DNA from: Planctomycetota bacterium
GTDB taxonomy: Bacteria > Planctomycetota > UBA1135 > UBA2386
DNA: 64,000 nucleotides
Reading direction: 5' to 3'
NCBI GenBank assembly: GCA_016794565.1
Contig: JAEUHQ010000103.1
Span: 14,841-78,840 of the forward strand
Below, piece by piece: positions 1-51,427 of this stretch. Within the stretch, counting starts at the first letter, position 1, and the number at the start of each line of letters is the position of its first letter. A model generated the notes under the pieces. That model was not told the origin of the DNA, did not search any database, and saw nothing but the letters and a program-made list of their open reading frames with translations. Both the position numbers and the translations under genes were made by a program.

Positions 1-1062
1 GCCGCGGACGCAGCCGCCTATGCGACGAGCCGCGACGGCGTCGGCGGCGCAGTCGTGAAGCACGAACTGCCGCGCCAGCACATCGGCCGCATGCTCGGCG
101 GCGCGCTGCAGTCGCAGGCGCTGAGCCACCTCTCGCTGCAGCAGGACCACGACGGCGTCGACCTCGCCGGCCTGCGCGATCTCACGAAGTCGGCGGCGGC
201 GACGAGCGCGCTCGAGTCCCAGATCGCGGCGGAGCGCGTGATCGGCGGGCGCGCGTTCGACCGTTCGTCGCGAGTGCACGAGGCGCGCGCCAACATGCAC
301 GTGTTCGGCGTCGTCGAGGGCGAGGACGACCTCATCCTCATGGGCATGGTGAAGGACGTCACCGACGCGTTCACGAGCCGCTACATGGCGAGCATGCTGT
401 CGGTGATCCAGTCGATCAACGAGGGGCCGGACGGCAAGCCGCTCCCGCCCGACCAGCGCATCCTGCGCCTGACTCCGAAGACGCTCTTCACGGCGCCGGG
501 CAAGCTCTGGCTCGCGACGCGACGCCTGCTCGGCAAGGGCGCGTTCTGGAAGTTGAAGGGCTGGATCGTCTGGAACGGGCTGATCGAGCTCCTGCGCCTG
601 CCCCTGCTCGTCGTGCCGACGCGCTGGATCCCGCGCTACCAGCTGCTGCCCGAAGGGCTGCGCGGCTACGCACGCTTCGCCGAGCAGCGCCTGCGCTGGC
701 TGCGGTGGGCGTACCTCGGCACCAACCTGTTCTTCCAGCTCGAGCTGACGCGCGCGCAGATCCCGCTGCAGCGGCTCGGCAAGGTGATCGAGCAGCTCGT
801 CACGATGCTGGCGCTCTGCCACCACTCGGCGCAGCGCGATGCGAGCCAGCAGAACGTCGCGGCGCTGCAGTGCGAACAGATCGCGACGCGAGTGCGCGGC
901 ACCAGGCTGCTCACCGGGCTCTTCCAGATGGACCGCCTGAGGCGTCTCGTCGGCCGCGTCGGCGACGACGTCGAGAAGCGGCAGAGCACACTGATCGCGG
1001 GTGTGCGGCCCGAGGCGATGGCGCACCCGTTCGAAGCGCGCGAGCGGAAGAAGAAGGGCTGA
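1..1062 (+). CDS. acyl-CoA dehydrogenase-like protein, C-terminal part (5' end lies outside the window)
   Basis: Frame 1 is open from base 1 to the stop at 1060-1062; the track lists it from an internal start at 55. TKSAAATSALESQIAAERVIGGRAFDRSSRVHEARANMHVFGVVEGEDDLILMGMV resembles the ACAD C-terminal helical domain. About 230 aa of extension with hydrophobic helices follows. Family call is from motif recall only. Confidence 0.45.
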   Translation, partial: AADAAAYATSRDGVGGAVVKHELPRQHIGRMLGGALQSQALSHLSLQQDHDGVDLAGLRDLTKSAAATSALESQIAAERVIGGRAFDRSSRVHEARANMHVFGVVEGEDDLILMGMVKDVTDAFTSRYMASMLSVIQSINEGPDGKPLPPDQRILRLTPKTLFTAPGKLWLATRRLLGKGAFWKLKGWIVWNGLIELLRLPLLVVPTRWIPRYQLLPEGLRGYARFAEQRLRWLRWAYLGTNLFFQLELTRAQIPLQRLGKVIEQLVTMLALCHHSAQRDASQQNVAALQCEQIATRVRGTRLLTGLFQMDRLRRLVGRVGDDVEKRQSTLIAGVRPEAMAHPFEARERKKKG

Positions 1063-1127
1063 GCACGCGGACCGATCCGCGGGATTCCCGAACCGTCGGA
1101 GCACGCGCCGGGCTCTCTTCTCGCGCG

Positions 1128-4100
1128 ATGGACGCCCCGGATCCCGACGACCTGCTGCGCGAAGTGCGGTGGCTGCACCGGCTGGCGCGCAGCCTCGCGG
1201 CAGACCCGGAGGCAGCCGCCGACGCGGCCGGCGACACGCTCGTCGCGTGGGCCCGCACGGCAGAACGCCCGCGGTCGGCACGGGCATGGCTCGCGACGGT
1301 GCTGCGTCGGGCGGCGGCGCGGCGAGGCCGCAGCGACGAACGGCGGCGGCGCGCCGAGGCAGCCGCGCGGGCCAGGAACATGCCCGCGCCGCGCGCACCG
1401 GACGAGATCCTGGCGTCCGCCGAACTGCACCGTTCGCTCGTGGACGCGGTCCTCGCGCTCGACGAACCGTACCGGTCGGCGATCGTGCTCCGGTACCTCG
1501 AAGACCTGCCGCTCGACGACGTCGCGCGGCAGCTCGGTGTGCCGGGCGAGACGGCGCGCACCCGCGTGAAGCGCGGCCTCGAACGCCTGCGCCGCGCTCT
1601 CGACCGCCGCCACGGCGACCGCGCCGCGTGGGTCGCTCTGCTGCCCGGCCGCGGCCCCGCACCCCTGGTCCCGATCCTCGGAGCGATGATGGCGACGAAA
1701 CTGCTTCTCGGTGCCGCGGCCGCGGTCGTGCTGGCCTGGCTCTTCCTCGACGACGTCCGCGACGCCCCGGCCCCGATCGGGCCGACGCGAACCGCCGCGA
1801 CGATCGAGAGCCCGGCCGGCGACCGCGCGCCCCACGATGCCGACCCCACGGGCGCAGAACGTGTCGAGCGAACCGCGCCCATCGCCGGTTCCGCGACGAC
1901 CGTCGCAGCGATGGTGCGCGGGCGTGTCGTCGACGAGGCGACGGATCTCCCGCTCGCGGGGATCACCGTGACGACGACCGCACCGCACGACGCTGCCACC
2001 GCACGCGACGAGAGTGCCGCCGACGGGACCTTCGCGCTGGCCCTGACCGCGGCTCCGGACGACGACGACACGATCGTTCTGACGCACCCGGACTACGCCC
2101 CGATCACCGTCTCCATCCGATCCGCGGATCGCGACGACGACGCGCGGTCGTTCGACTGCGGTGATCTCGCGCTCGCGCCCGGAACGCTCGTCAGCGGCGT
2201 CGTGCGGAACACCGACGGAGCACCCGTCGCCGGCGCGGGCCTGTTCGTCTGCGACACTGCGTGGAGCAGCGGCGGCCGCCGCACACGCCTTCGCGAAGCG
2301 ACCCCGGTCGGCACGAGCGCGGCCGACGGCTCGTTCGTGCTCGACCGCCGCCTCCTCCCCAATCGCCCGCCGCCGGTCCTGGTCGCCGCGAGTCCGGTCG
2401 GGATGGCGTTCGTCGAGCTCCCGGATCTGTCGCGCGCGGCGGGCGAACGGCGGATCGAACTGCGGCTCGCGCCGAACGCCAGAGTCACCGTCACCGCGGT
2501 CGACGAAGAAGATCGCCCGATCGGCGAAGCACTCGTCACTGCCGCACCGAAGTTCCATCCCCTGTGGGCGATGGAAGCACCGCTGCGGTTCGCCCACGCG
2601 TCCGCGCTCGCCGACGCGCTCTCGGCTCGCACCGACGGGGCGGGACGCGCCTCGCTGCTGCTGCCGGTCGTCGCGGCACGGCTCGTCGTGAACACGTGGT
2701 TCGTCCACTGCGAAGCGCCCGACCGGGACGCCGCCGGCGCGTCCCCGACGATCGACGCGACAAGTCGCGCCTCCGTCGAGCTGCGCCTCCGCCTGCCGCG
2801 AACGAAGCCGGTCGAGGTCCGCGGGACCGTTCGCGACCGCGCCGGGCGTGCGATCGCCGGGGCCAGCGTGACCGCGCACTGGCGCAGCGAGACGACGGCG
2901 CGAACCGACGCGAACGGCGCGTACGTGCTGCCGGTCGATCGCGGCGACGGGGACCTGATCGTCGTCGCGAACGCGCCCGATACGTTCCCCGGCCGCGAGT
3001 CCGCGCGACCCGAACCCGGCGTCGCCTCGCACGTCGTCGACTTCGTGCTCGACCCAGCGGTCGAACTGCGCGGTCGCGTGGTCGATCAGGACGGTCGGCC
3101 CGTGGTGCGCGCGAACGTGTGGCTCGCCGACCGCGACGCGGCGATCCCGACGGATGCGACGGGCATGTTCACGGCGCTGGTCTCCCCCGATCGGCCGACG
3201 GCGCTGGATGTCGCGCCGCCCGACCCGGGCACCGCGTGGAACGGCCCCGCCGCGCACCTGCTCGCTGCCGGGCAGCGCGCCGTGACGCTGACGCTGCAGC
3301 GCCTCCGCGGCGGTCGCGCATCGATGACCGTGCGGGTCCTGGACGAGTCGGGCGCGCCGCTCGACCTGCAACTCGCGCTTCTCCGCCGCGACGACGAGGG
3401 CCAGGCCCTCCATCATCCCGCGACCGCGACGATCGGCCGCGTGACCGCGAACGGCCTCGCTCTCGGCGACTGGTCCCTCCGGATCGTCCCTTCGCGCGGC
3501 CCGGAACTCTTCACGCGCTTCACGGTGCGCGGCGACGCGGAACCGATCGACCTCGTGCTGCAACAGGCGACGGCGATCACGGTGCACGGCGACGTCTTCT
3601 TCGAGCCGGACTCACTCATGCCAGGGGAACTGGAACTCGCGTTCGGCGCCGCCGGTCAGTCGGCGCACTTCGCGCCGGAAGCAGGGCAGCGCACGGACAA
3701 GGACCGCGCGACCCTCACCCTCGATGCCGGCGCGCCGCGCTCGTTCCGGGTCGAGGACGTCGATCCGTCGCGCCCCCTCGTCGTCGTCGCGGGCGGAGCA
3801 GGACTCACCGGTGAAGGATCGCTGCGCTCCGCGGACGGAACGGCGCACGTGCGGGTCGTGGTGCAACGCGCCGCGCAGGTGCGCGTGCGCAGCCGCGAGG
3901 AGTTCCAGGGCAGCCTGCTCCTGCAACTGCGGCGGCCGAACGGCGAGTGGGACGAGCCGATCCGCTACATCGGTCGGTCGCACGACGGCGAACTCTTCAC
4001 ACAGGACGTGCCGTCCGGGACGTTCGAGTGGCGCGCGCGGTCGCCGTCGCGCGGCACGGACAACGCGACCGCGGTGCGCTGGCAGACCGGCGCGTTCACG

Positions 4101-4139
4101 GTCGAGTCCGGTGCCATCGCGGACATCGAGCTGCGCTGA
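1128..4139 (+). CDS. ECF-type sigma-70 factor fused in-frame to a transmembrane helix and a large extracytoplasmic Ig-like (CarboxypepD_reg-like) repeat region
   Basis: First ATG (1128) after the upstream gene, in frame with track ORF 705..4139. Sigma-2/sigma-4-like segments are LLREVRWLHRLARSLA... and YRSAIVLRYLEDLPLDDVARQLGVPGETARTRVKRGLERLRRAL. There is no in-frame stop before the hydrophobic helix MMATKLLLGAAAAVVLAWLFL (nt 1686-1750). Repeats follow of the type VRGRVVDEATDLPLAGITV, VSGVVRNTDGAPVAGAGLFV, VRGTVRDRAGRAIAGASVTA and LRGRVVDQDGRPVVRANVWL. Confidence 0.7.
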   Translation: MDAPDPDDLLREVRWLHRLARSLAADPEAAADAAGDTLVAWARTAERPRSARAWLATVLRRAAARRGRSDERRRRAEAAARARNMPAPRAPDEILASAELHRSLVDAVLALDEPYRSAIVLRYLEDLPLDDVARQLGVPGETARTRVKRGLERLRRALDRRHGDRAAWVALLPGRGPAPLVPILGAMMATKLLLGAAAAVVLAWLFLDDVRDAPAPIGPTRTAATIESPAGDRAPHDADPTGAERVERTAPIAGSATTVAAMVRGRVVDEATDLPLAGITVTTTAPHDAATARDESAADGTFALALTAAPDDDDTIVLTHPDYAPITVSIRSADRDDDARSFDCGDLALAPGTLVSGVVRNTDGAPVAGAGLFVCDTAWSSGGRRTRLREATPVGTSAADGSFVLDRRLLPNRPPPVLVAASPVGMAFVELPDLSRAAGERRIELRLAPNARVTVTAVDEEDRPIGEALVTAAPKFHPLWAMEAPLRFAHASALADALSARTDGAGRASLLLPVVAARLVVNTWFVHCEAPDRDAAGASPTIDATSRASVELRLRLPRTKPVEVRGTVRDRAGRAIAGASVTAHWRSETTARTDANGAYVLPVDRGDGDLIVVANAPDTFPGRESARPEPGVASHVVDFVLDPAVELRGRVVDQDGRPVVRANVWLADRDAAIPTDATGMFTALVSPDRPTALDVAPPDPGTAWNGPAAHLLAAGQRAVTLTLQRLRGGRASMTVRVLDESGAPLDLQLALLRRDDEGQALHHPATATIGRVTANGLALGDWSLRIVPSRGPELFTRFTVRGDAEPIDLVLQQATAITVHGDVFFEPDSLMPGELELAFGAAGQSAHFAPEAGQRTDKDRATLTLDAGAPRSFRVEDVDPSRPLVVVAGGAGLTGEGSLRSADGTAHVRVVVQRAAQVRVRSREEFQGSLLLQLRRPNGEWDEPIRYIGRSHDGELFTQDVPSGTFEWRARSPSRGTDNATAVRWQTGAFTVESGAIADIELR

Positions 4140-4224
4140 TCCGCGCCGGTTGACACCCGGCGCCGGCGTTCCCAGAATCGCGGCCCGCCGCGCGCGCCCT
4201 CGTTCGCTCGGACAAGCCGCCTCC

Positions 4225-5250
4225 ATGACCGACGCTTCGAGCGACAAGCAGATCGCCACCTGGATCCGGGCCGACGACAGCCGCCCGTTCTGCGCGCGCC
4301 CGTGGCAGCAGATCACCGTGCTCTCCGACGGCAGCGCGGTGTGCGCATGCGTCGACGCGGCGAAGACCAACCCCCTCGGCAACTTCCGTTTCCAGACATT
4401 CGACGAAGTCTGGAACGGCAAGAGCTACGAGAAGCTGCGCCGCGCGATCGCGTCCGACATCGACCAGACGCCGATCTGCGTCGGGTGCCCGAACCGCATC
4501 GCCGAACCGCCACCCGCCGACTACTTCACCGGCGTGCAGAAGCCCGAGGCGCTGTTCATCGAGTCGTACGCCGGCTGCAACCTCGCCTGCCCCGGTTGCG
4601 ACCGCGAGAGCATCGAAGGCAACCGCGACGAGCTCGCGATGAGCCTCGACGCGTTCAAGCGCGTGATCGACGGCGTGTCCCCCACGCTGAAGTACATGGA
4701 GTTCCACCTCGGCGGCGAGAACTACATGCACAAGGACGCGCACGAGATGGTCACGTACGCGCGGAAGAACAACCCGAACTGCTTCATCCTCTCGAGCACG
4801 AACGGCCACTTCTTCCACACCGAGGAGCGCTGCCAGAAGGTGCTCGACTCGGGCATCGACGCACTGATCTTCTCGGTCGACGGCGCGCGGCAGGAGACGT
4901 ACGAGAAGTACCGCGTGAACGGCCGCTTCGACCGCGTGTTCGAGGCGATGAAGAAGATCGTCGCGATGCGCAACGCACAGGGCCTGCGCCGGCCGATCGT
5001 GATCTGGCGCTACATCCTGTTCGAGTGGAACGACAGCCGGGAGGAGATGGACCTCGCACGGCGCCTGGCTGAGGAGATCGGCGTCGACCACCTCGCGTGG
5101 CACCTGAACGCGGTCTCGATCATGCAGTCGAGCAAGCGCTACCACATCGGCTCGCCGCACCTGATGGAGATCAAGGACGAGATCTGGGACACGCTGCCCG
5201 AGCGACTCGCCGACGGGCCGAAGGACGTGAAGTTCGACCGGTACCGGTGA
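4225..5250 (+). CDS. radical SAM protein with N-terminal SPASM/twitch-like Cys-rich domain
   Basis: ATG at 4225 is the first start after the stop at 4139 (in frame with track ORF 3724..5250). The CxxxCxxC motif is in ESYAGCNLACPGCDRE, about 115 aa from the N-terminus. It is preceded by CARPW..LSDGSAVCACVD..LGNFRFQTFDEVWNG..ICVGCPNR, which reads like an auxiliary-cluster (SPASM-type) domain. Confidence 0.8.
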   Translation: MTDASSDKQIATWIRADDSRPFCARPWQQITVLSDGSAVCACVDAAKTNPLGNFRFQTFDEVWNGKSYEKLRRAIASDIDQTPICVGCPNRIAEPPPADYFTGVQKPEALFIESYAGCNLACPGCDRESIEGNRDELAMSLDAFKRVIDGVSPTLKYMEFHLGGENYMHKDAHEMVTYARKNNPNCFILSSTNGHFFHTEERCQKVLDSGIDALIFSVDGARQETYEKYRVNGRFDRVFEAMKKIVAMRNAQGLRRPIVIWRYILFEWNDSREEMDLARRLAEEIGVDHLAWHLNAVSIMQSSKRYHIGSPHLMEIKDEIWDTLPERLADGPKDVKFDRYR

Positions 5251-5266
5251 GCCGACTTTGCGCGCG

Positions 5267-5929
5267 TCAGCGCGCCGGCGCGGCCACTTCGGTGCCTTCC
5301 GGCACGTTGTTGCGGCCGACGTTCTGGCCGTCGAGGCCGGCGAGCAGCTTCTGCATGCTGAGCTGCATCGCGCGCCCGATCAGCCGGTACGGGCTCACGG
5401 GATTCACTTCGAGGGCCGACACCTGACGGTTGCTGAACGTCTGCTCCATCAGCGTCGCACGCACACCGGTGCCGTCGGCCGGGCCGAGCACCTGCAGCTT
5501 CAACGCGATCTCCGCGAACGAACGCGACCCGCTGATCGCCTCGGTCGCACCCGTGGTGAAGGAGACGAGTGTCGGCTTCACGACCACCGACTGCGGCGTC
5601 GCCTTGTCGACGACGTTCGCGAAGAGGCCGCTGTCCTGCACCTGCCGCGCCAGCACCTCACCGAGCATCTCGGGCACGGGACGCTCCCAGAACTCGTCGC
5701 TTCCGTACGAGATCGGGAACCCGCGCTCCTGGGTCGGCAGCGCGGTTCCTTCGCGCGCGTCGACGACCGGTGCGACGAAGACGTCGCGATCGCCGGGCGC
5801 CTTCGTGGCGTACGGTACATCCACGTACAGCGCCTGGTTCCTGGCGAAGTCGGCCGAGGTGTCGAAGCTCGCGCACGCGGCGGCGAAGGCGAGGAAGAGG
5901 ACGGATGCGGTCGTCCGGGGGGTGTTCAT
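5267..5929 (-). CDS. putative lipoprotein, unknown function
   Basis: Last 220 codons of track ORF 5267..8491; the upstream part is antisense to acnA and is rejected. It starts MNTPRTTASVLFLAFAAACASFD, a signal peptide with a lipobox-like AAAC. The rest has ordinary, non-low-complexity composition. Confidence 0.6.
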   Translation of the reverse strand: MNTPRTTASVLFLAFAAACASFDTSADFARNQALYVDVPYATKAPGDRDVFVAPVVDAREGTALPTQERGFPISYGSDEFWERPVPEMLGEVLARQVQDSGLFANVVDKATPQSVVVKPTLVSFTTGATEAISGSRSFAEIALKLQVLGPADGTGVRATLMEQTFSNRQVSALEVNPVSPYRLIGRAMQLSMQKLLAGLDGQNVGRNNVPEGTEVAAPAR

Positions 5930-6064
5930 GCCCCCATGCCATCGGCAGGATCGGGCGAGAACCTGAGCCTCCGGCGGACGCCCCGCGCTTTTGCCTGCGG
6001 ATCGGCGAACGGATAGAACCGTCGCCCCTCGTCCGGCGCGGTCAGCCGGCGAGAAACCACCCCG

Positions 6065-9010
<2,946 letters not shown>

Positions 9011-11897: not shown

Positions 11898-13262
11898 GCG
11901 TCCTGCGCCCACCGGTTCGCGGGGCTCGACGACCGATGCCGCCGGCGGCGGCACCGCGGGCGGGTTCGCGGGTGCGGCCGGCGACGGTTCCCAGACCGCG
12001 CCGGTGATGAGACGGGCACCGCGAGAGAACGCGAAGTACTGGAACGCCCAGCCCATCATCACGACGAGCCGGCTGCGGTACCCGATCAGGTAGGCGATGT
12101 GCACGCACCACCAGATCCACCACGCGACGAAGCCGGACAGGCGAGCACCGCCGATCTGGCCCACCCCCGCCGCGCGGCCGATCGTCGCGAGCGAGCCCTT
12201 GTCCCGGTAGCGGAACGGGCGCGTCGCCTTGCCCGCGGCGCGCCGCGCGATGTTCGCAGCCGCGGCGCGACCGGACTGGATCGCGGCGGGCGCCACCCCG
12301 GGCACCGGCCTGCCGTCCTGCTCGCGACTCATCAGGTCGCCGACGACGAACACCTCGGGATGCCCTGGCACCGACAGATCCGGCTCGACGAGCACACGCC
12401 CCGCCCGATCGGTCGGCACTCCGATCGTCCGGCCGAGCGGCGATGCCGCGACGCCCGCGGCCCACAGCACGGTGCGCGCCGGGACGTGCACGTCGCCGAT
12501 CCACACGCCCGTGCAGTCGATGTTCGTGACCTTCGACTGGAGCAGCACCTCGACGCCGAGGCGTTCGAGCTGCGCCTTCGCCTTCGCGGACAGGCCCGGA
12601 TGGAACGGCGGCAGCACGCGGTCCGTGCCCTCGACCAGCAGCACTCGGAGACTGCGCGGGTCGAACGAACGGAAGTCGCGGGCCACGGTCTCGCGCCCGA
12701 TCTCCGACAGCGCACCGGCCAGTTCCACACCCGTCGGCCCCGCGCCGACGACGACGAACGTGAGCGCCGCGCGGAGCTTCGCCGGGTCGCTCTCGCGCTC
12801 CGCGACTTCGAACGCCGAGAGCACGCGCCGCCTCACCTCGAGCGCGTCTTCGACGGTCTTCAGGCCGGGCGCCCACGCCTCCCACTGTGGCTTCCCGAAG
12901 TAGCTGTGCGTCGCACCGGTCGCGACGAGCAGGTAGTCGTACGGGATCGCACCCTCGCGCGTCTCGACGACACGCTTCTCGACGTCGATGCGCTGGCACT
13001 CGCCGAGCAGCGTGCGCACGTTCGCCTGCCGGCTCAGCACCGAGCGGATCGGATAGGCGATGTCGCCGGGATTCAGCGCGGCGGTCGCGACCTGGTAGAG
13101 CAGCGGCTGGAAGACGTGGTGGTTCTTGCGGTCCAGCAGCGTCACGCGCACCGGAGCCTTGCCGAGCGCACGCGCCGCGGAGAGTCCGGCGAACCCTCCG
13201 CCCAGGATCACGACGTGCGGCAGTTCGTTCGCGGGGGTGCACGACGACGCGGAGATGGCCAT
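11895..13262 (-). CDS. ndh: type II NADH:quinone oxidoreductase (NDH-2)
   Basis: 455-aa ORF. HVVILGGGFAGLSAARAL dinucleotide fold, NHHVFQPLLYQVATAAL, and a second GxGxxG in FVVVGAGPTGVELAG. Confidence 0.9.
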   Translation of the reverse strand: MAISASSCTPANELPHVVILGGGFAGLSAARALGKAPVRVTLLDRKNHHVFQPLLYQVATAALNPGDIAYPIRSVLSRQANVRTLLGECQRIDVEKRVVETREGAIPYDYLLVATGATHSYFGKPQWEAWAPGLKTVEDALEVRRRVLSAFEVAERESDPAKLRAALTFVVVGAGPTGVELAGALSEIGRETVARDFRSFDPRSLRVLLVEGTDRVLPPFHPGLSAKAKAQLERLGVEVLLQSKVTNIDCTGVWIGDVHVPARTVLWAAGVAASPLGRTIGVPTDRAGRVLVEPDLSVPGHPEVFVVGDLMSREQDGRPVPGVAPAAIQSGRAAAANIARRAAGKATRPFRYRDKGSLATIGRAAGVGQIGGARLSGFVAWWIWWCVHIAYLIGYRSRLVVMMGWAFQYFAFSRGARLITGAVWEPSPAAPANPPAVPPPAASVVEPREPVGAGR

Positions 13263-17882: not shown

Positions 17883-20069
17883 ATGAACCTCCTCCACGCC
17901 TCCCCGCTCCTGCTCGCGTTCTCGGCCACGCTGCCGGCCCAGACGTTCGACCTTCGCTCGGCGCACACCGTCGTGCGCACCGGCGACGGCGCCGTCCTGG
18001 CAATCGGCCGCGACTACAAGGCCACATTCGCCGCGGACGGTGCGACGTTCGCTCCGGCGCTCGGCCCCCGAGCGGCCGTGCGCGGAGAACTCACGCTTCG
18101 GGTCGCTCGCATCGGTCGCGACAACCGGGTGGCGTGGCAGGCCGACACCGCGCCGACCGCGGCGGCCGCACTGCGCGATCACGTCGTGACCTTCGCCCGC
18201 GGCGTGTGTACCGAGACGTACGAGTGCCGCGTCGACGGGGTCGAACAGAGCTTCGTGTTCGACCGGCGCCCCGACGGCACCGGCGACCTCGTGGTGCGTT
18301 GCGACGTGACGACCGCGCTCGAGCCGACGGTGCGCGGCGACGGCACGCTCTTCTTCCACGACGGCGCGATCGGCGGCGTGACCGTCGGCGCGATCACCGG
18401 CGTCGACGCGATCGGCCGCACGTGCCCCGGGTCGCTGCAACGGCACGACGGGGCGATCGAACTGCGCCTCCCGGCAGCGTTCGTCGACTCCGCCGCGTAT
18501 CCGCTCACGCTCGATCCGCTGCTCGCGACGGGATTCCTGATCGGCAGCGCCACGGACAACGAGGACCAGGTCGACGCGGCGTACGGCGCGTCGCCGAACA
18601 CGACGCTCGTCGTGTGGCGACGCAGCTACTCGCAGTGGAACCAGGACGTCTACGGACAGCAGGTCGCGAACGACGGTTCGCTGTCCGGCCCGCTGCTCGT
18701 CATCTCGTCCGGTGCGCACGCCGAACGTTCCCCGTCGGTGACCTACGTCCGCGGCCGGAACCGCCACGTGGTGTGCTGGCTGCAGGCGTCGTCGATGGTC
18801 GGACCGTGGACCGTCGAGGCGCGCACCGTGAACGGCGCCACGCTCGGCTCGACCGTCACGGTGTCGGGCAACACGGCGCCGAACGGCCGCTGGATCACGT
18901 CCGCGGGCGACAGCAGCGCACTCGGCACCAGCACGCTCGTCGTCTGGGCGACCGCGCTCGGCACTTCCCCGTTCGGCGAACAGACGACGATCCTGCGCAC
19001 CAACACGATCGACATCAGCGCCTTCGGCACGGTCTCGGTCGGCACCCCGGCGGACCTCACTTCGTCGCTCGCCTTCCCGACGGACGACGTGTTCGCGCTG
19101 CCGAAGAGCCGCACGCCGGGCGGCGTGACCGCGCTCGCCGCGCACGTTCCGGGCCAGACGGGCCAGCACCGCGTCCACGCCCTCGACCATCTCGGCAACT
19201 ACCTGGCCGCGTCGGTGCACGTGAGCACGACGGATCCCGCGAAGGAACCCGCGCTCGCGATCGACGGCAACGGCACCGACTTCGTCGTCGCGTGCCGCCG
19301 CTTCGACGGCGAAACCGTCGTGCGCCAGATCACGTGGAACGGAACCGCGTTCACTTCGGGCACGAACGTCACCGTGCTCGGCACGCCGCAGAGCAGCGCG
19401 TGCGCGGTCGGGTTCCTCGGCGAACGCTTCCTCGTCGCATGGTCCGAAGGCACCGCCAACCCGTTCGACAACGACCTCCGCGGCGTCGCGATCAAGCCGA
19501 ACTGCGAGGTGTGCAGCCAGAGCTTCACGCTGGCGAGCGTCGCGCGGCCGAACGCCCGCGGCCCCGCGATCGCACCGGTCGTCGCCGGCGGCGGCAGTAC
19601 GAACACCGCGCTGCTCGCTTGGGACGAGACGAACACGAGCTCGCCGTTCACCGGCAGCGTCGTCGGACGGTTCTTCGCGGCGATGGTCGGTGCGCCGCCG
19701 GTCTTCCTGAGCCCCGGCTGCGGCAACGGCGGCACGGCGAGCGCCACGGGCCCGTTCTCGCCGGGCAACGACCAGTTCGCGTTCGCCCTGTCCGGTGGCG
19801 ACCCGACCGCGCCGTTCGCCCTGATCAGCCTCAGCCTCGGCGGCTCGTCGGTCCTCTGCGGCTGCGAACTCACGAACTTCCTCGTGCTCGAGGCCACGCT
19901 CGCGCAGGCCGGCAGCTCCACCTACGCGTTCAAGCCGTGGTGCGACCCGAGCTACCTCGGCACGGACATCGAGTTCCAGTGGCTGCTGTGGCCCGCCGCG
20001 CAGAGCCCGTGCCCGATCGTGGAGAACCTCGCCGCCAGCAACCGGATGCTCGTCACGCTGCAGCCGTAG
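17883..20069 (+). CDS. secreted repeat protein, paralog family type B (B1)
   Basis: 728-aa ORF starting 4 nt after the A1 stop. Signal peptide is MNLLHASPLLLAFSATLPAQ. Module islands are AIGRDYKATF, FAPALG, VDGVEQSFVFD, GDLVVRC, GGVTVGAITGVD and YPLTLDPLLA. Repeats end LVVW, VVCW, LVVW, FLVAW and LLAW. The C-terminus reads PGCGNGG...LCGCELTNF...FQWLLWPAAQSPCPIVENLAASNRMLVTLQP. Confidence 0.8.
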   Translation: MNLLHASPLLLAFSATLPAQTFDLRSAHTVVRTGDGAVLAIGRDYKATFAADGATFAPALGPRAAVRGELTLRVARIGRDNRVAWQADTAPTAAAALRDHVVTFARGVCTETYECRVDGVEQSFVFDRRPDGTGDLVVRCDVTTALEPTVRGDGTLFFHDGAIGGVTVGAITGVDAIGRTCPGSLQRHDGAIELRLPAAFVDSAAYPLTLDPLLATGFLIGSATDNEDQVDAAYGASPNTTLVVWRRSYSQWNQDVYGQQVANDGSLSGPLLVISSGAHAERSPSVTYVRGRNRHVVCWLQASSMVGPWTVEARTVNGATLGSTVTVSGNTAPNGRWITSAGDSSALGTSTLVVWATALGTSPFGEQTTILRTNTIDISAFGTVSVGTPADLTSSLAFPTDDVFALPKSRTPGGVTALAAHVPGQTGQHRVHALDHLGNYLAASVHVSTTDPAKEPALAIDGNGTDFVVACRRFDGETVVRQITWNGTAFTSGTNVTVLGTPQSSACAVGFLGERFLVAWSEGTANPFDNDLRGVAIKPNCEVCSQSFTLASVARPNARGPAIAPVVAGGGSTNTALLAWDETNTSSPFTGSVVGRFFAAMVGAPPVFLSPGCGNGGTASATGPFSPGNDQFAFALSGGDPTAPFALISLSLGGSSVLCGCELTNFLVLEATLAQAGSSTYAFKPWCDPSYLGTDIEFQWLLWPAAQSPCPIVENLAASNRMLVTLQP
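19922..20035 (+). repeat. 114-nt run identical to 24375-24488 (3' region of B1 versus B2)
   Basis: By-eye comparison of CTACGCGTTCAAGCCGTGGTGCGACCCGAGCTACCTCGGCACGGACATCGAGTTCCAGTGGCTGCTGTGGCCCGCCGCGCAGAGCCCGTGCCCGATCGTGGAGAACCTCGCCGC in both genes. Flanking sequence back to ~19681 / ~24133 is highly similar but not identical. Confidence 0.8.
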
Positions 20070-20152
20070 GGCCGCTGCGCCGGGAACGCGAACTTCGTGC
20101 GAACGGCGCGCCCCTCCGGTTCGCTGCCCCCCGGGAGGCCTCGATCCGAGCC

Positions 20153-22339
20153 ATGAACCGCCATCTCCCCCGCTGGGCAGCCGCCGCGGCGCTGTCCCTC
20201 CTCGCTCCGTCCGTCCTCGCCCAGAACCCCGGCACGTTCCACCTGCGCCTCAGGGAACAGGCTGCGCTGCAGCAGCTCGACGGCGAACTCTGGGGCATCG
20301 GCCCCGACTTCAAGGCCGCGTTCCGCCCGGACGGTGTCGAGTTCACCCCGGCGCTCGGCCGGCGCGCGGCGCGGAACCACCCGGTGACGCTGCGCACGGT
20401 CTCGGTCGGTCGCGGCACGACCGCGGCCGCGGTCCCGGCGGCGGTACCGGAGGCGGCCGGGCAGCGGGCCCGCTACGACCGCGGCGACGTCGCGGAGCGC
20501 TACGACGTGACCCCACGCGGGCTCGAGCAGTCGTTCGTGTTCGACCGCCTTCCCGCCGGCGACGGCGACCTCGTCGTGCGCGTCGCGGTCGAGACCGATC
20601 TGCCGCTGGTGCCAGGCACGGCGGACGGCCTCCGGTTCGAACTGCCCGAGGTCGGCGGCGTCGCGATCGGCGGCGTCACGGGCATCGATGCTGCGGGCGA
20701 GAACACGCGCGGAACGATCACCTGCGACGGCCGGGTCGTCGAACTCCGACTGCCCGCGGCATTCGTCGACGGTGCAGCGCTGCCGCTCGTGCTCGATCCG
20801 CAGATCGGCGCGGTGTTCCCGGTGACGAGTTCGACGCAGGACTACCAGGATCCGGAACTGACGGCGCCCTGCGTCTCCGGCGACGTGTACCTCTGCGTCT
20901 TCGAACGTGAGTTCAGCGCGACCGACCGCGACATCCGCGGCATCCGCGTCGACGGGTCCGGCGCCGTCACTGGTTCGTTGTTCGCGCTGACGACCGGCAC
21001 GGGCGACGACCGCGATCCGACCGCCGCGGCCGTGCCGATGCGGAGCGCGTGGCTCGCGGTGTGGACGCGCGGCGGCGACCTGTTCACGCGCTCCGTCGCG
21101 TCGACGGGGACCGTGAGCAACGAGTTCACCGCGGTGTCGGGCGCCAACAACCAGATCGAACCCGACCTCGGCGGCGACGCGACGGGGACCGTGGACGACC
21201 TCGTGCTGGTGTTCCGCAACTCGTCGCTGAACGCGGTCCAGTGCAGCACGATGACGCTGTTCTCGAACGGCATCATCGCGACGTCGGCGCCGGCGACACT
21301 CGGTACGACGATCGCCGGCAACAACATCGGCCGCCCGCGCATCGCGCACGACGGCGGCGCGCTCGGCCGCTACCTGATCGTCTACCCGCTGACGCCGGGC
21401 TTCAGCGGCAACACGAAACCGCAGCTCGTGCTGATCGACCGCGACGTGAACGTTCTCGCGACCGGCGCGATCACGAACGGTGGCAACGACAACGACCGGC
21501 CCGACGTCGACGGCGACGGCCGCAACTGGGTCGTGGTCTTCGAGGACGAGTTCATCGAGGGCACTCAGGACAACGACGTCGTCGCGATCGCGGTCTGGCA
21601 TCACGAGGCCGGCGCATCGCTGCAGATCGGCGCGCCGCAGTTCGTCACGAACATCGCGAGCGTGAACGAGACGGACCCCGTCGTCGCGTGCTTCGGCAAC
21701 GGCTCCGCGCTGGTCGGCTGGCGCCGGCACAGCGGTCTCGTCGCCGCGAACACCGACCTCTTCTGCAAGACGGTCGACCAGCTCAGCTGCACGACGTGCG
21801 AACCGACCGTGCTGCTCGCGAACACCACCAACATCGAGACCAACTTCGCGATCGAGTGCCACCCGTCGACCGTGAACGAAGGGATCGTGCTGTGGGAAGT
21901 GTCGACGTCGAGCAGCGGCAACGGCGACCTCGACGCCGCGATCTGGGACGCGGAGGACGGCGACGTGGTGACCCCGTTCGGCGGCGAAGGCTGCGGTCCG
22001 AACATCTACTCCGTCGCGGGCTGCGCTCGCGTTGGCAACGCGGGGTTCCAGGTGTGGGTCCGCGGTTTGTCGATCCCGACGAGCTCCGTGTTCGTGCTGT
22101 CGCTGAGCCAGGGCTTCCTGCAGTGCGGCCCCTGCCGGATCTACCCCGACATCTACTCCGGCCTCGTGCTGTACCCCGTGGCCGGCATCAGCGGCGCGGT
22201 GGTCGGCCTCTCGATCCCGAGTGAGCCGGCGCTCAGCGGAATGCGGTTCTACACGCAGTACCTCGTGCCGGCCTCGGCCCCCCTGTGCACGTGGCTCGGT
22301 CGCGACGTCACCAACGCCCTCTCCATCACCATCCAGTGA
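20153..22339 (+). CDS. secreted repeat protein, paralog family type A (A2)
   Basis: ATG at 20153, in frame with track ORF 18134..22339; 728 aa. Signal peptide is MNRHLPRWAAAAALSLLAPSVLAQ. It has the same islands as A1 (WGIGPDFKAAF, FTPALGR, GLEQSFVFDRLP, GDLVVRVAV, LPLVLDPQIGAVF). The C-terminus reads ...CGPCRIYPD...MRFYTQYLV...VTNALSITIQ. Confidence 0.8.
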   Translation: MNRHLPRWAAAAALSLLAPSVLAQNPGTFHLRLREQAALQQLDGELWGIGPDFKAAFRPDGVEFTPALGRRAARNHPVTLRTVSVGRGTTAAAVPAAVPEAAGQRARYDRGDVAERYDVTPRGLEQSFVFDRLPAGDGDLVVRVAVETDLPLVPGTADGLRFELPEVGGVAIGGVTGIDAAGENTRGTITCDGRVVELRLPAAFVDGAALPLVLDPQIGAVFPVTSSTQDYQDPELTAPCVSGDVYLCVFEREFSATDRDIRGIRVDGSGAVTGSLFALTTGTGDDRDPTAAAVPMRSAWLAVWTRGGDLFTRSVASTGTVSNEFTAVSGANNQIEPDLGGDATGTVDDLVLVFRNSSLNAVQCSTMTLFSNGIIATSAPATLGTTIAGNNIGRPRIAHDGGALGRYLIVYPLTPGFSGNTKPQLVLIDRDVNVLATGAITNGGNDNDRPDVDGDGRNWVVVFEDEFIEGTQDNDVVAIAVWHHEAGASLQIGAPQFVTNIASVNETDPVVACFGNGSALVGWRRHSGLVAANTDLFCKTVDQLSCTTCEPTVLLANTTNIETNFAIECHPSTVNEGIVLWEVSTSSSGNGDLDAAIWDAEDGDVVTPFGGEGCGPNIYSVAGCARVGNAGFQVWVRGLSIPTSSVFVLSLSQGFLQCGPCRIYPDIYSGLVLYPVAGISGAVVGLSIPSEPALSGMRFYTQYLVPASAPLCTWLGRDVTNALSITIQ

Positions 22340-38869: not shown

Positions 38870-39085
38870 CGCAACGGGCAGAAACGGCGAACGGACGCAC
38901 CGAGGCGACTCGCGACCGGGGTGGCCACCCCACCGGGGAAAGGCCGAAGGCGGGACGGCGGCGGCGACCCGTCCATCGCAGCGCGGCGTTGCCGGAGCGC
39001 CCCGGCATCCCGCGACGACCGCCCTCGTTGCCTGCCGTCCGCGGGCTACTATTCGGTGCGCAGCACCTCGGCTGGCATCCCCCGC

Positions 39086-40204
39086 ATGCGGACCCGCGAT
39101 TTCTGGACCCTCGCCGCGACGTTGTCGCTCATCGCCAGCCTGGGACTCGTGTTCCTCGGCCAGGAGACCTGGGCCGACGGAACGCGCCCCGACGCTCACG
39201 AGCCGGCCCACGTCGCGACCTCCGAGACCCGGACCGCGAACGGCGCGCCGACCGACGCCGCCGCGGTCGTCTCCGCGCAAGGCCCCGAGGCAGCCCCGGC
39301 GATCGCTCGCAAGAGCGAAGCAGGGGTCACCGACGCGACGACGGGCGTGATCCGCGGCGACATCCCGATCGCCGTGTCGATCCTCGACCGCATCCAGTCG
39401 ATCACGATCCACGTCGAAGAGGGACGCAACGCGATCGACGGCGACGGCCAGTTCCGGCCGCGACGCACGTTCCTCGAACACGCGAAGCTCGGTCCGGGCA
39501 CGCCGACGTTCGAAGTGCGCAACGTCCCGTTCTCGGAGTATCCGTGGATCGTCACGGCCTTCGCGCCCGGCCTGAACGGCGGCCGCGCGACCGTGATGCT
39601 GAACGCCGAGCATCCCGTCGCGGACGTCGCTCTGCCCGTCACCCCGGCGGCGCCGTTCACCATCCTGCTGCGCGACCAGGACCAGGCGCCGTACGTCGGC
39701 GTCGAGATCGTGCTGCAGCCCGTCGGCGAACCCGCCGGCCGCCCGAAGAAGGTCGCGACGACGGACTCGTACGGCAGCGCGGTCTACGAGGATCTGCTCG
39801 GCGGCGAGTACCGCGCGTTCCTCTCGATCGCCGGCCAGCCTCTCGAGGATCCGCAGTCCTTCGTGGTCCCGACCGCGACGCACGTCGTCGCGAGCACGGT
39901 GCAGGGCCATGGCACTACGATCACCATCGCGCGCGGCATGCCGCTGCAGGTTCGGGTCGCGGACGTTCGCGGCTACGGACTCGCCGACGTGACGGTCACC
40001 GCCACCGCGACGGATCAGGTCCGGCACAAGGCGATCGAACTCACCACGGATGCGACCGGCGTCGTCACATTCCCGCGCCTCCTGCCCGGCACGTGGCAGA
40101 TCGACGTCCAGCGCACCGACTACCAGCGCAGCACGCGGCAGGTCACCGCCCGCGCCGGCGAACCGATCGAACCGATCGAGTTCCAGCTCGTCCGCCTGCG
40201 CTGA
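39086..40204 (+). CDS. signal-anchored/secreted protein with CarboxypepD_reg-like Ig repeats
   Basis: ATG at 39086, in frame with track ORF 38921..40204; 372 aa. N-terminal helix is FWTLAATLSLIASLGLVFL. Repeats are of the type VIRGDIPIAV..., FTILLRDQDQAPYVGVEIVLQP...TTDSYGSAVYEDLLGGEY and LQVRVADVRGYGLADVTVTATA...TTDATGVVTFPRLLPGTW. Confidence 0.6.
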   Translation: MRTRDFWTLAATLSLIASLGLVFLGQETWADGTRPDAHEPAHVATSETRTANGAPTDAAAVVSAQGPEAAPAIARKSEAGVTDATTGVIRGDIPIAVSILDRIQSITIHVEEGRNAIDGDGQFRPRRTFLEHAKLGPGTPTFEVRNVPFSEYPWIVTAFAPGLNGGRATVMLNAEHPVADVALPVTPAAPFTILLRDQDQAPYVGVEIVLQPVGEPAGRPKKVATTDSYGSAVYEDLLGGEYRAFLSIAGQPLEDPQSFVVPTATHVVASTVQGHGTTITIARGMPLQVRVADVRGYGLADVTVTATATDQVRHKAIELTTDATGVVTFPRLLPGTWQIDVQRTDYQRSTRQVTARAGEPIEPIEFQLVRLR

Positions 40205-48647: not shown

Positions 48648-49252
48648 GGCTCCGGAATACCGGGCCGATGCGCCGCGGACAACGTCGCGGCGAATCGCTC
48701 GAGCTCCGGCCACAGTTCGTCGAAGTCCGCGGCGAATGCCGCGCGCTCCCGCCGCAGGATCTCGCCGCCCGCGGCGAGCGGCGTCGGGCGTGCGACGCGG
48801 CCCGCCATGCGCTCGAGCACGGCGTCGATGCCCGCGAGCGTCGAGTACTCGAAGAGCCAGCGTTCGCGCCGCATCCACGGCAGCACGCTCCGCAGACGCG
48901 GCGGCAGGTGCGCTTCGTTTCGCGCCAGCAGATCGTGCACGTCGTCGACGAACTGCGTCAGCGGACGGCCATCGCCGAAGCGATCCCAACCGCTCGCGAG
49001 GAAGTGGTCGAAGTACACGTCGACGAGCACTCCGGCGAAGCGACGGAACGGCGGCTCGAACCGACCGCGGGCGCGGCGCACCACCGTGTGCGCGTCGACG
49101 AAGCGGTCGATCGCCCGGTGCTGCTCGATTCCGGCGCGCACGTCGTCGTGCAGCAGCGCCGTGTCGACGCCGCGAACGAAGTCGCCGGCGAGATTGCCGA
49201 CCCGCACGAGCGGGGCAGCGGGCGCGAGTCGCAGGTGTGCCAGCCAGTTCAC
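48644..49252 (-). CDS. acpH: acyl carrier protein phosphodiesterase (AcpH-like)
   Basis: Track ORF 48644..49351. The family-typical N-terminus [10 protein letters not shown]...[10 protein letters not shown] places the start at GTG 49252. A 4-nt overlap (ATGA) joins it to rnhA. Confidence 0.7.
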
Positions 49253-49360
49253 GCCGGCAGCATCCGCCGCAGTGCACGGCGCGCCAACGTGCGACCCGGA
49301 AACGCGAACGGGCGCCCGCGGCGCCCGTTCACGATGCCGGCGAGCCGGCACACGCGCTCG

Positions 49361-51259: not shown

Positions 51260-51427
51260 GGACACCGGTCGCAACTGGGAACGAGGGCGCGCCGGTGGTG
51301 GTCGGGAACCTACTCCAACCGCGCAAGCGCGTCGACTCCGCTTGTCGGTGACGGATTTGTCCCACCGCGCGCGCGGAAGCACACGCGTGCCTCGGTCGCA
51401 GGCCGTGCCTACACTCCCCGCCCGCCG

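Follow-up and report, generated by a model that had tools for sequence, protein, structure and literature searches.

The locus described here raises two questions: whether a single reading frame of a Planctomycetota bacterium genuinely joins an ECF sigma factor to a helix that crosses the membrane and to a large domain outside the cytoplasm, and how a sigma factor held in this way could be put to work. We analyzed the 64,000 nucleotides that contain the gene (the window) together with related loci. The identity and architecture of the product, an ECF sigma-TM-beta-sandwich protein, can be given with high confidence.

Reading frame and gene call

The frame runs from an ATG at 1128 to a TGA at 4139 on the forward strand, and its translation of 1003 aa is free of stops. 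The GC content of the window is 72-76%, so that ORF length by itself is no proof of a gene. GC at the third codon position lies between 0.70 and 1.0 throughout 1128-4139, and its phase is unbroken over 1600-1750; together with the translation, this bears out an earlier note on this DNA, which had read the sigma region into the helix with no in-frame stop. The start at 1128 agrees with the aligned N-termini of the orthologues, in which M1 is nearly invariant, and with the promoter geometry. A Shine-Dalgarno-like sequence is missing 5' of the start in the window and in the six orthologues that bear the promoter motif. An ORF of 973 aa is also present on the antisense strand. A hairpin is found 3' of the stop, at 4143-4163 (-19.5 kcal/mol); it was rejected as a terminator, having a z of only -1.84 and no T-run. 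From N to C terminus the protein consists of ECF sigma-2/sigma-4 (aa 1-160), a 17-aa motif, a helix, a disordered linker and about eight beta-sandwiches:

1128..4139, + strand: CDS, sigma-TM-beta-sandwich fusion, 1003 aa (GenBank MBL8749489.1)
1161..1343, + strand: sigma-70 region 2, aa 12-72 (Pfam PF04542 Sigma70_r2, 28.1 bits, cut-off 24)
1431..1592, + strand: sigma-70 region 4, aa 102-155 (PF08281 Sigma70_r4_2, 40.6 bits, cut-off 25.7)
1599..1655, + strand: post-sigma-4 juxtamembrane motif L-D-x-x-H-G-x-R-x-x-W-x-x-x-L-x-P, aa 158-176 (conservation)
1686..1751, + strand: single transmembrane helix, aa ~187-208 (Kyte-Doolittle peak 2.05)
1752..1901, + strand: Pro/Ala/Thr-rich periplasmic linker, predicted to be disordered, aa 209-258 (low pLDDT)
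1902..4136, + strand: about eight beta-sandwich domains, aa 259-1003 (Pfam and AlphaFold2 model)
Within the last: CarboxypepD_reg-type units at aa ~262-333, 355-410, 564-620 and 647-690

Conservation and spread of the fusion

Nine colinear orthologues of 998-1012 aa, each from a separate assembly, share 40-53% identity, and sigma domain, TM helix and CarboxypepD_reg occur together in more than 200 relatives, drawn from NCBI, JGI, ENA and Logan assemblies. The fusion is therefore genuine and conserved, as the earlier note had supposed. Sigma domains are present in all of the best 120 of 245 matches, and all but one of these also have PF13620. Relatives were searched for the fusion as against a split pair, and the fusion is the rule: a query of aa 1-254 against 1.84 billion representatives returned, with few exceptions, proteins of 600-1400 aa, the short matches look truncated or frameshifted, and the sigma domains closest to this one occur almost without exception in fused form. 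At 50% identity the family falls into hundreds of clusters. Every match with an organism name is a Planctomycetes or Planctomycetota bacterium, a taxonomic spread that rests on source names only. Judged from these sequences, the fusion is the rule in a large clade that is confined to Planctomycetota among named matches. A search of genome contigs with the N-terminal protein found one distant locus, and the family HMM detected no paralogue within the 64-kb window besides the gene's own copy.

Sigma module

The complete ECF-type sigma-2/sigma-4 region reported in the earlier note is upheld by Pfam and NCBIfam scores above cut-offs, and the proposed scoring of the N-terminal region placed both sigma-70 regions over their Pfam thresholds. 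Region 4 also matches PF04545 (39.2 bits against a cut-off of 24.1), and NCBIfam TIGR02937 (sigma70-ECF) matches aa 16-158 with 59.1 bits against 42.9. The best matches among solved structures are the ECF sigmas SigW, SigE, SigL and SigK, region 4 aligning to region 4 of SigW, while Sigma70_r1 and Sigma70_r3 gave no Pfam matches at E <= 1. In the AlphaFold2 model the helices of region 2 (aa 6-79) have pLDDT ~80-92 and are followed by a short sigma-2/sigma-4 linker of low pLDDT (~aa 80-95). TIGR02984 (Sig-70_plancto1, Planctomycetaceae-specific sigma subfamily 1) scores 42 bits, under its cut-off of 183.75.

Mean identity over 10 orthologues is 65% for sigma-2 and 72% for sigma-4, the best conserved region of the whole protein, against 39-57% for the beta domains; by this measure no other part of the protein is under stronger constraint than the sigma module. 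Its omega of 0.41 indicates that it is still under purifying selection. The gene as a whole has diverged more quickly than the flanking genes (dN 0.38 versus 0.07-0.19), and the periplasmic stalk differs between paralogues in domain number and sequence. Two positions set the orthologue group apart from the family: position 35 is Gly in the group and the region-2.2 Gln in 90% of the family, and position 61 is Arg or His in the group and Asn in 58% of the family. The Pfam score of region 2 is barely over threshold. From the sequence evidence, the N-terminal module likely functions as a sigma factor.

Juxtamembrane motif, helix and topology

The juxtamembrane motif is 62% identical among orthologues, and across 120 family members its positions are kept at 93% (L158), 86% (D159), 73% (G163), 85% (R165), 87% (W168), 73% (L172) and 69% (P174). 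The hydrophobic helix noted earlier at nt 1686-1750 falls inside the sole long run of 19-aa Kyte-Doolittle windows above 1.6 (aa 180-211); two isolated windows above this value, at aa 508-528, lie within the beta-sandwich region. A comparable single hydrophobic stretch (aa ~150-260) directly follows sigma-4 in 113 of 120 relatives. With 26% Ala (14% overall), the helix is rich in this residue; it is preceded by a conserved Met-x-x-Lys, with Met in 57%, Val in 21% and Leu in 11% of the pre-helix column. The linker is only 22% identical among orthologues; in the family it has a median length of ~63 aa, of which 61% are P/A/S/T/G/E, and in the model aa 171-256 have pLDDT below 50.

The protein is predicted to be a type II membrane protein with a cytoplasmic N-terminus and a periplasmic C-terminus. 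Across 211 members the N-side flank of the helix has a net charge of +1.0 and the C-side flank one of -0.4. The plain K+R count is ambiguous and does not favour the N-side (1.20 versus 1.46 on the C-side), so the topology rests on net charge, domain logic and the single helix.

Extracytoplasmic beta-sandwich chain

The periplasmic part comprises ~795 aa, of which the chain of sandwiches makes up ~745. CarboxypepD_reg (PF13620) matches it in four stretches with 104.7 bits against a gathering threshold of 32.3 (E = 3e-30), and fragments scored one by one give 34.1 and 41.0 bits. A loose version of the repeat motif given in the earlier note has three matches in the extension and none in 2000 shuffles. 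The at least four repeats of that note thus stand as CarboxypepD_reg units; these are transthyretin-like sandwiches, and the name 'Ig-like' given to them holds in a loose sense only. In the AlphaFold2 model (mean pLDDT 82.8), aa 261-1003 consist of beta structure throughout and form about eight sandwiches, mostly at pLDDT 85-97. Pfam scores only the first five or so units, and the remaining sandwiches are known from the model only. A Foldseek search with the whole model returned generic multi-beta-sandwich matches (pilins, TEP1/alpha-2-macroglobulin, TIE) with TM-scores of at most 0.33, none of which indicates a specific function.

Upstream motif and neighbouring genes

An ECF-type motif, GATTCCTGAACCG-N13/14-GGCTCT, is common to six orthologues and ends ~11 nt 5' of the ATG. 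In the window its two elements are:

1084..1095, + strand: -35-like element ATTCCCGAACCG of a putative ECF-type autoregulated promoter (six orthologues)
1111..1116, + strand: -10-like element GGCTCT, 11 nt 5' of the ATG (conserved in orthologues)

GATTCCyGAACCG keeps a constant spacing to the ATG in six orthologues of independent assemblies, in the midst of intergenic DNA that cannot be aligned. GCTCT is found 17 nt after GAACC in all six (GGCTCT in five). The full motif has one exact match per orthologue locus, and no second copy was found in the 64-kb window or in any orthologue locus. We infer that it acts as a promoter, with a putative transcript that would have a very short leader or none. 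Near-leaderless mRNAs and positive autoregulation are typical of ECFs. Boxes of the GAACC type are typical -35 elements of ECF groups (table of ECF groups). The retention of an ECF-type motif 5' of the sigma gene itself in six orthologues suggests autoregulation. Looser matches in the window, among them 13097-13125 (-) and 19390-19415 (-), were rejected as a regulon, being at chance level (3 observed versus 0.62 expected; 4 of 100 shuffles reach 3).

The earlier note had proposed the neighbouring radical-SAM gene (4186-5295) as a regulon of the sigma factor. This is unlikely, and the gene was rejected as partner or regulon: the syntenic contig of the closest syntenic relative (L008) has no counterpart, the neighbours at six other orthologue loci are unrelated and include no adjoining radical-SAM gene, and the gene has a sigma-70-like promoter of its own (TTGACA-17-CAGAAT) and no copy of the conserved motif upstream. 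For annotation, the adjoining gene should not be taken as the regulon. The ORF adjoining on the upstream side has no Pfam or NCBIfam match. A TonB-dependent receptor is neither an adjoining gene nor listed in the six orthologue neighbourhoods, and no M50/S2P, Prc or DegS-like protease was seen among the scanned genes of the window.

Comparison with known systems

The design is not unprecedented; membrane-spanning extensions are already described for IutY, ECF52, ECF53, ECF48 and ECF57, and the fusion is a member of this recognised class of self-tethered sigma factors. The closest described groups, compared by their descriptions, are ECF57 and ECF52. Jogler 2012 is said to be the source for ECF57 as a Planctomycetes-specific group. 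This group is described as having a C-terminal extension with ~2 TM helices, and some of its members have extensions of WD40 or homeodomain-like type. A Cys pair, with one partner each in sigma-2 and sigma-4, is completely conserved, and the proposal made for the group is that the sigma is released from the membrane (Casas-Pastor 2021, Supplementary Text S2). The present fusion resembles ECF57 in its restriction to the phylum, its TM-bearing C-terminal extension, its several copies per genome and its lack of a separate anti-sigma. By Kyte-Doolittle it shows one hydrophobic stretch of ~30 aa. Unlike ECF57, it has no Cys in aa 1-165; 138 of 211 relatives likewise have none, and no Cys column is conserved.

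ECF52 (SCO4117 of Streptomyces coelicolor), ECF53 and ECF48 of Actinobacteria also have long membrane-crossing C-terminal extensions, with an extracytoplasmic region of carbohydrate-binding type and proposed proteolytic activation (PMC8999054; PMC5826349). Besides their different phylum, they differ from the planctomycetal fusion in having a cytoplasmic zinc-finger (ZAS-like) anti-sigma domain, in place of which the fusion has ~20 Cys-free residues without a Pfam match. IutY of Pseudomonas putida (ECF243) is a sigma-TM-periplasmic hybrid that is released by Prc and then RseP (PMC5411451, PMC8999054). Both proteins combine a sigma domain, a single TM and a periplasmic domain in one polypeptide, with no separate anti-sigma gene. 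IutY, however, has 374 aa and a FecR-type periplasmic domain, whereas the periplasmic part here is a much longer CarboxypepD_reg/beta-sandwich region with no Pfam match to FecR, and its sigma is not FecI-like by NCBIfam. IutY is also paired with a TonB-dependent receptor in iron cell-surface signalling, whereas the genes adjoining the fusion are not receptors. Sigma-E/RseA pairs share the membrane-held sigma, the logic of site-1/site-2 proteolysis and the Ala-rich TM helix, but they are two proteins with an anti-sigma domain of ~80 aa, and here the bond is covalent and that domain is lacking. ECF41 and ECF42 likewise have an extension fused after sigma-4 and no anti-sigma partner; their extensions (SnoaL-like, TPR) are cytoplasmic and contact the sigma core, whereas this one is membrane-spanning and extracytoplasmic. 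The literature yielded no paper in which fusions of sigma and CarboxypepD_reg are described as such.

Proposed release from the membrane and alternative explanations

The earlier note had seen a sigma, an anti-sigma and a sensor in one polypeptide. The sigma-TM-extracytoplasmic fusion stands, but an anti-sigma domain does not: aa 160-261 have no Pfam match, the stretch between sigma-4 and the helix contains no Cys/His motif of zinc-finger type, and sigma-4 ends at ~aa 160 and the helix begins at ~aa 187, so that sigma-4 lies only ~20 residues away from the membrane. Any 'anti-sigma' action would therefore come from tethering and not from a built-in inhibitor. Release by proteolysis and action from the membrane, the options named in that note, are the right alternatives. 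Overall, the best explanation is probably that of a membrane-sequestered ECF sigma which regulated proteolysis sets free. The sigma fusion would drive its own promoter, and tethered ~20 residues from the membrane the sigma would be out of reach of RNA polymerase. The trigger would be a cue from the periplasm or envelope that the beta-sandwich chain senses or that acts on this chain, and it would start trimming of the extension, which may be most accessible at the disordered linker; a site-2 protease would then cleave within the Ala-rich helix, and the freed sigma fragment of ~21 kDa would turn on the regulon. For IutY this mechanism has been demonstrated; for the present protein the release step, drawn by analogy, we consider somewhat favoured.

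Alternatively, the sigma could be active while anchored, with RNA polymerase and DNA recruited at the membrane and the periplasmic chain acting by allostery or clustering in place of proteolysis; ToxR and CadC are membrane-bound regulators of such a type. The polypeptide has no inhibitory domain and the post-sigma-4 motif could serve as a signalling hinge, both of which would suit this mode of action. We nevertheless regard it as unlikely, since in IutY, the sole tested hybrid, all membrane-tethered truncations were inactive unless RseP cleaved them (PMC5411451). With a linker of ~20 residues, a 400-kDa holoenzyme would also have scant space next to the membrane, and a disordered linker of such low identity next to a rigid beta chain would make a poor allosteric relay through one helix. 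The sigma head could instead have decayed, or merely bind polymerase, in a protein that is mainly structural or binding in the envelope or periplasm. The marginal region-2 score, the replacement of the region-2.2 Gln by Gly in the orthologue group and the high dN of the gene point in this direction, but the highest orthologue identities are those of sigma-2 and sigma-4, omega in the sigma part still indicates purifying selection, region 4 scores well and the ECF-type promoter motif is kept upstream, all of which make this very improbable.

Even less probable is a separate signal-anchored beta-sandwich protein made besides the fusion from an internal start at Met187/188, the fusion being a relic of a sigma inserted before a membrane-protein gene. 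The Met/Val/Leu column, the Lys and the hydrophobic core do resemble a signal-anchor N-terminus, GGAG lies 5 nt 5' of the second ATG in the window, and, according to a proposal by Pinto and da Fonseca, extensions in planctomycetes arose from sigma-2/sigma-4 inserted into or before other genes (PMC7671368). Against this, exchanges among Met, Val and Leu are commonplace for hydrophobic residues, and the six other relatives examined lack an SD-like sequence there, a comparison of little power because true starts also lack one. Finally, the source is a metagenome-assembled genome, and an assembly or sequencing artefact near nt 1600-1700 might have joined a sigma gene to a separate gene for a membrane anti-sigma or sensor. 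This is effectively refuted by comparative sequence data: the architecture is uninterrupted in the nine orthologues and >200 relatives from several assembly sources, codon-position GC has no phase break, and the junction at the post-sigma-4 motif is conserved in frame. Sigma-TM fusion genes should not be split or marked as frameshifted in annotation.

Wider significance

A broader proposal, which as a whole we find rather doubtful, is that these proteins form an undescribed large ECF group of uncultured Planctomycetota, a one-polypeptide signalling device regulated purely by covalent tethering. If so, a beta-sandwich rod of ~30 nm would reach across the wide periplasm of planctomycetes and signal what happens in the envelope or at the outer membrane; anti-sigma domains of any kind would be absent, expression would come from a self-activated, near-leaderless promoter, and the genes, often as tandem paralogues, would diversify much faster than their neighbours. 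Should intramembrane proteolysis be demonstrated, the IutY mechanism would be widened from one Pseudomonas oddity to a phylum-level family, and release would offer a way to learn what these cells detect in the unusual envelope of planctomycetes. The clade offers a very clean 'one-component' sigma case, with no anti-sigma domain to confound the logic of tethering and release, and the predicted autoregulated promoter is clear enough for reporter use.

An ECF sigma factor with a membrane-spanning extension

The gene at 1128-4139 on the forward strand encodes an uncharacterised ECF sigma factor of a known kind, that with a membrane-spanning C-terminal extension. It is translated from ATG 1128 to TGA 4137-4139 as a single stop-free frame of 1003 residues. 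The surrounding GC content is 70-76%, so that long stop-free frames arise by chance (an antisense ORF of 973 aa at 666-3587 overlaps the gene), and ORF length by itself is therefore no evidence for the fusion. Within the frame, codon position 3 GC stays at 0.70-1.0 throughout 1128-4139, and no phase change in codon-position GC is seen at the sigma/helix junction. The gene 5' of it stops at 1062 in another frame, and the N-terminal Met of all orthologues aligns with ATG 1128. The steady codon-position signal and the colinear orthologues described below uphold the single-frame fusion proposed in the earlier note, of which the observations stood and the interpretation survived in part.

The complete sigma-2/sigma-4 region that had been read from the sequence was recovered above curated thresholds: Sigma70_r2 (Pfam; aa 12-72, 28.1 bits, threshold 24), Sigma70_r4_2 (Pfam; aa 102-154, 40.6 bits, threshold 25.7) and TIGR02937 'sigma70-ECF' (NCBIfam; aa 16-158, 59.1 bits, threshold 42.9). 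Among proteins of solved structure, the best matches are SigW, SigE, SigL and SigK, all ECF sigmas. The hydrophobic helix noted at nt 1686-1750 lies inside the sole long run of Kyte-Doolittle windows >1.6 (aa 180-211); within the beta-sandwich region, a further two single windows (aa 508-528) also exceed this value. The extension had been described as Ig-like repeats. Its repetition is real, with 3 occurrences of a loosened repeat motif vs 0 in 2000 shuffles, and the units are of the Carboxypeptidase-regulatory-like type (PF13620, 104.7 bits over four stretches, E = 3e-30). An AlphaFold2 model built from 28 aligned relatives (mean pLDDT 82.8) divides the protein as follows.

Regions of the fusion protein in the AlphaFold2 model
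aa 6-162, sigma module, confident helices
aa 171-256, helix and Pro/Ala/Thr-rich linker, low confidence
aa 261 to C-terminus, all-beta chain of about eight sandwiches, confidently modelled
aa ~262-333, 355-410, 564-620 and 647-690, sandwiches recognised by Pfam

The single sandwich at aa ~438-558 and the last three (aa ~717-1003) have no Pfam match, and Foldseek searches of the PDB returned only generic multi-sandwich proteins (Gram-positive pilins, TEP1/alpha-2-macroglobulin, TIE protein).

One polypeptide thus joins a sigma module of cytoplasmic type to a single helix, a disordered linker and a beta-sandwich chain of secreted type, and contains no inhibitor domain. Sigma-4 extends to about aa 160, and the helix starts at about aa 187; aa 160-261 matched no Pfam family, and aa 1-165 contain zero Cys, which leaves no ZAS-type zinc finger. 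An anti-sigma domain is absent. Hence, of the sigma/anti-sigma/sensor polypeptide envisaged earlier, the fusion holds and the anti-sigma component does not. The gap instead carries a motif conserved among 120 relatives (L158, D159, G163, R165, W168 (87%), L172, P174), followed by conserved P182 and G184.

Conservation and divergence

A Planctomycetota MAG contributes the identical protein to GenBank as MBL8749489.1 ('sigma-70 family RNA polymerase sigma factor'). Other assemblies (NCBI, JGI, ENA, Logan) supply nine more proteins, 998-1012 aa long, that align colinearly from end to end at 40-53% identity. The best 120 of 245 significant matches are 645-1469 aa long; all 120 have sigma domains, all but one have PF13620, and in 113 a hydrophobic stretch directly follows sigma-4, at about aa 150-260. 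When aa 1-254 alone were searched against 1.84 billion cluster representatives, 77 matches fell below 1e-30, and nearly all of the best 150 were 600-1400 aa long. The short matches stop within the helix or carry out-of-frame-looking tails, and are thus fragments. The alternative arrangement raised in the earlier note, a split sigma and anti-sigma pair, was not seen among the nearest relatives, where only the fused form was found. Since the fusion recurs colinearly in independent assemblies with no split version, a frameshift or misassembly is ruled out for practical purposes.

Mean identity among ten orthologues
Sigma-4, 72%
Sigma-2, 65%
Post-sigma-4 motif, 62%
Helix, 41%
Periplasmic linker, 22%
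Beta domains, 39-57%

Constraint on the protein is therefore strongest in the sigma module. Against contig L008, which carries the nearest orthologue, the fusion gene has dN 0.38 (0.07-0.19 in the flanks), dS 0.78 (0.33-0.56) and omega 0.49 (0.20-0.33), with omega <1 in every segment. Amino-acid identity is 54% for the fusion protein vs 89%, 74% and 82% for the flanks at 294-1059, 5267-5929 and 6065-6349. This faster divergence suggests that selection is relaxed or diversifying, or that paralogues have exchanged alleles. Tandem or clustered paralogues of the family occur in other MAGs, on contigs L001 (3813-6932 and 7001-10039) and L007 (1-2189, 3001-6015 and, on the minus strand, 6043-8424); no second family member was found in the window.

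A conserved upstream motif

In six orthologues most synonymous sites have diverged (dS about 0.8 for the closest two), and their intergenic DNA is unalignable outside one promoter-like motif. It consists of GATTCCyGAACCG, 13-14 variable bases, GGCTCT (CGCTCT in one of the six), about 11 bases and ATG, with fixed spacing.

Motif elements in the window
1084-1095, GATTCCyGAACCG element
1111-1116, GGCTCT element

Each orthologue locus has one copy, always just 5' of the fusion gene. In P0011, which is more distantly related (32% identity), CCTGAACCG is retained with a different downstream box, and the motif is absent upstream of both paralogues examined (L001 3813, L007 8424). In a published table of ECF groups, GAACC-type -35 elements are typical for ECF promoters. 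In the window and its six motif-bearing orthologues, the start is not preceded by a Shine-Dalgarno-like sequence. The motif is a putative autoregulated ECF promoter, whose leader would be very short or absent.

Relationship to known groups and possible mechanism

Planctomycetal ECFs have already been described as gaining large, diverse C-terminal extensions (Pinto and da Fonseca, PMC7671368), and the gene will not surprise a specialist. By group description, the closest group is ECF57, which is Planctomycetes-only with a membrane-spanning extension and about 5 copies per genome, and in whose subgroup s3 a carboxypeptidase-regulatory-like domain was noted (Casas-Pastor 2021). However, the 'completely conserved' Cys pair of ECF57 in sigma-2 and sigma-4 is missing in the fusion protein and most relatives, so membership is not claimed. 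ECF52/53/48 differ in having a zinc-finger anti-sigma domain, and the score against TIGR02984 (planctomycete sigma subfamily 1) is 42 bits vs the 183.75 required. The clade is probably large and poorly classified. The closest working analogue is IutY of P. putida, which shares the sigma-TM-periplasmic layout, owes its activation to Prc and RseP, and remains RseP-dependent in all tethered truncations (PMC5411451; PMC8999054); its FecR domain and its receptor partner are absent from the present system.

We infer an N-in, C-out topology because a working sigma has to be in the cytoplasm, the helix is single and its flanks differ in net charge (N-side +1.0, C-side -0.4 over 211 members), although the K+R count on either side is indecisive in the same 211. 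By analogy with IutY, the sigma would be held at the membrane by its own helix; the periplasmic part would be trimmed, and site-2 cleavage within the Ala-rich helix would then free the sigma. Such sequestration and release, also proposed for ECF57 (Casas-Pastor 2021), is the best-supported mechanism and somewhat probable. No site-2 protease was recognisable among the window genes scanned.

The main rival, a sigma that is active while tethered, we consider unlikely; the RseP dependence of tethered IutY speaks against it. A minor alternative is a structural envelope protein whose sigma head has decayed. Here the region-2 Pfam score barely exceeds threshold (28.1 vs 24), a region-2.2 Gln conserved in 90% of the family is Gly in this orthologue group, and position 61 is Arg/His where the family has Asn; on the other side stands the sigma module's place as the most constrained part. 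Also minor is an extra product from an internal start. The family alignment has a pre-helix column (window 1686-1700, codons 187-191) with Met 57%, Val 21% and Leu 11%, Lys 2-4 residues on, and then an Ala-rich hydrophobic core with Trp at its end. This Met may be left over from the gene fusion or may serve as an internal start; GGAG precedes it in the window copy only. The Met-Lys-hydrophobic pattern is like that with which signal-anchor proteins begin. The clean tether-only design and conserved putative promoter make the gene a good experimental entry point.

Neighbouring genes

Synteny between the window and contig L008 covers the upstream ORF (89% identical), the minus-strand lipoprotein gene and the aconitase gene.

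Genes flanking the fusion gene
55-1062 (+), upstream ORF, 335 aa as listed
4225-5250 (+), radical SAM gene
5267-5929 (-), lipoprotein gene
6065-9010 (+), aconitase gene

The upstream ORF is a conserved gene without a Pfam or NCBIfam match. The proposal that the radical SAM gene forms the regulon is unsupported: window 4186-5295 has no counterpart in L008, its GC is 0.65-0.67 vs 0.70-0.76 around it, and TTGACA-17-CAGAAT at 4150-4178, the sole sigma-70-consensus promoter in 900-5400, belongs to it. Neighbours at the other five orthologue loci are unrelated, with tandem paralogues on L001 and L007. Given its absence from an otherwise syntenic contig, the gene is probably a recent insertion, or was deleted in the L008 relative. 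Its protein has an N-terminal SPASM/twitch domain (aa 23-89) ahead of the radical-SAM core (aa 113-246), and matches NF033640 'N_Twi_rSAM' below threshold. Directly after the stop codon of the fusion gene lies a GC-rich hairpin (4143-4163, GCGCCGG/CCGGCGC, -19.5 kcal/mol) that overlaps the radical SAM promoter at its -35 box. The hairpin lacks a T-run, and its z is only -1.84 vs shuffles.

Elsewhere in the window, housekeeping genes predominate, together with several large ORFs that have no Pfam match. The very large ORFs, among them 18134-22339 (1401 aa) and 48668-54730 (2020 aa), have good codon-position GC periodicity; 18134-22339 and four other large ORFs (731-930 aa) gave no match when scanned against Pfam. 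At its C-terminus (8740-9010) the aconitase has a tail of some 90 aa rich in Lys, Ala and Pro, which resembles a histone-H1 tail; AT skew is 0.40 at 8501-9000. Another gene, at 38921-40204, encodes a separate protein of 427 aa with a CarboxypepD_reg domain at its C-terminal end.
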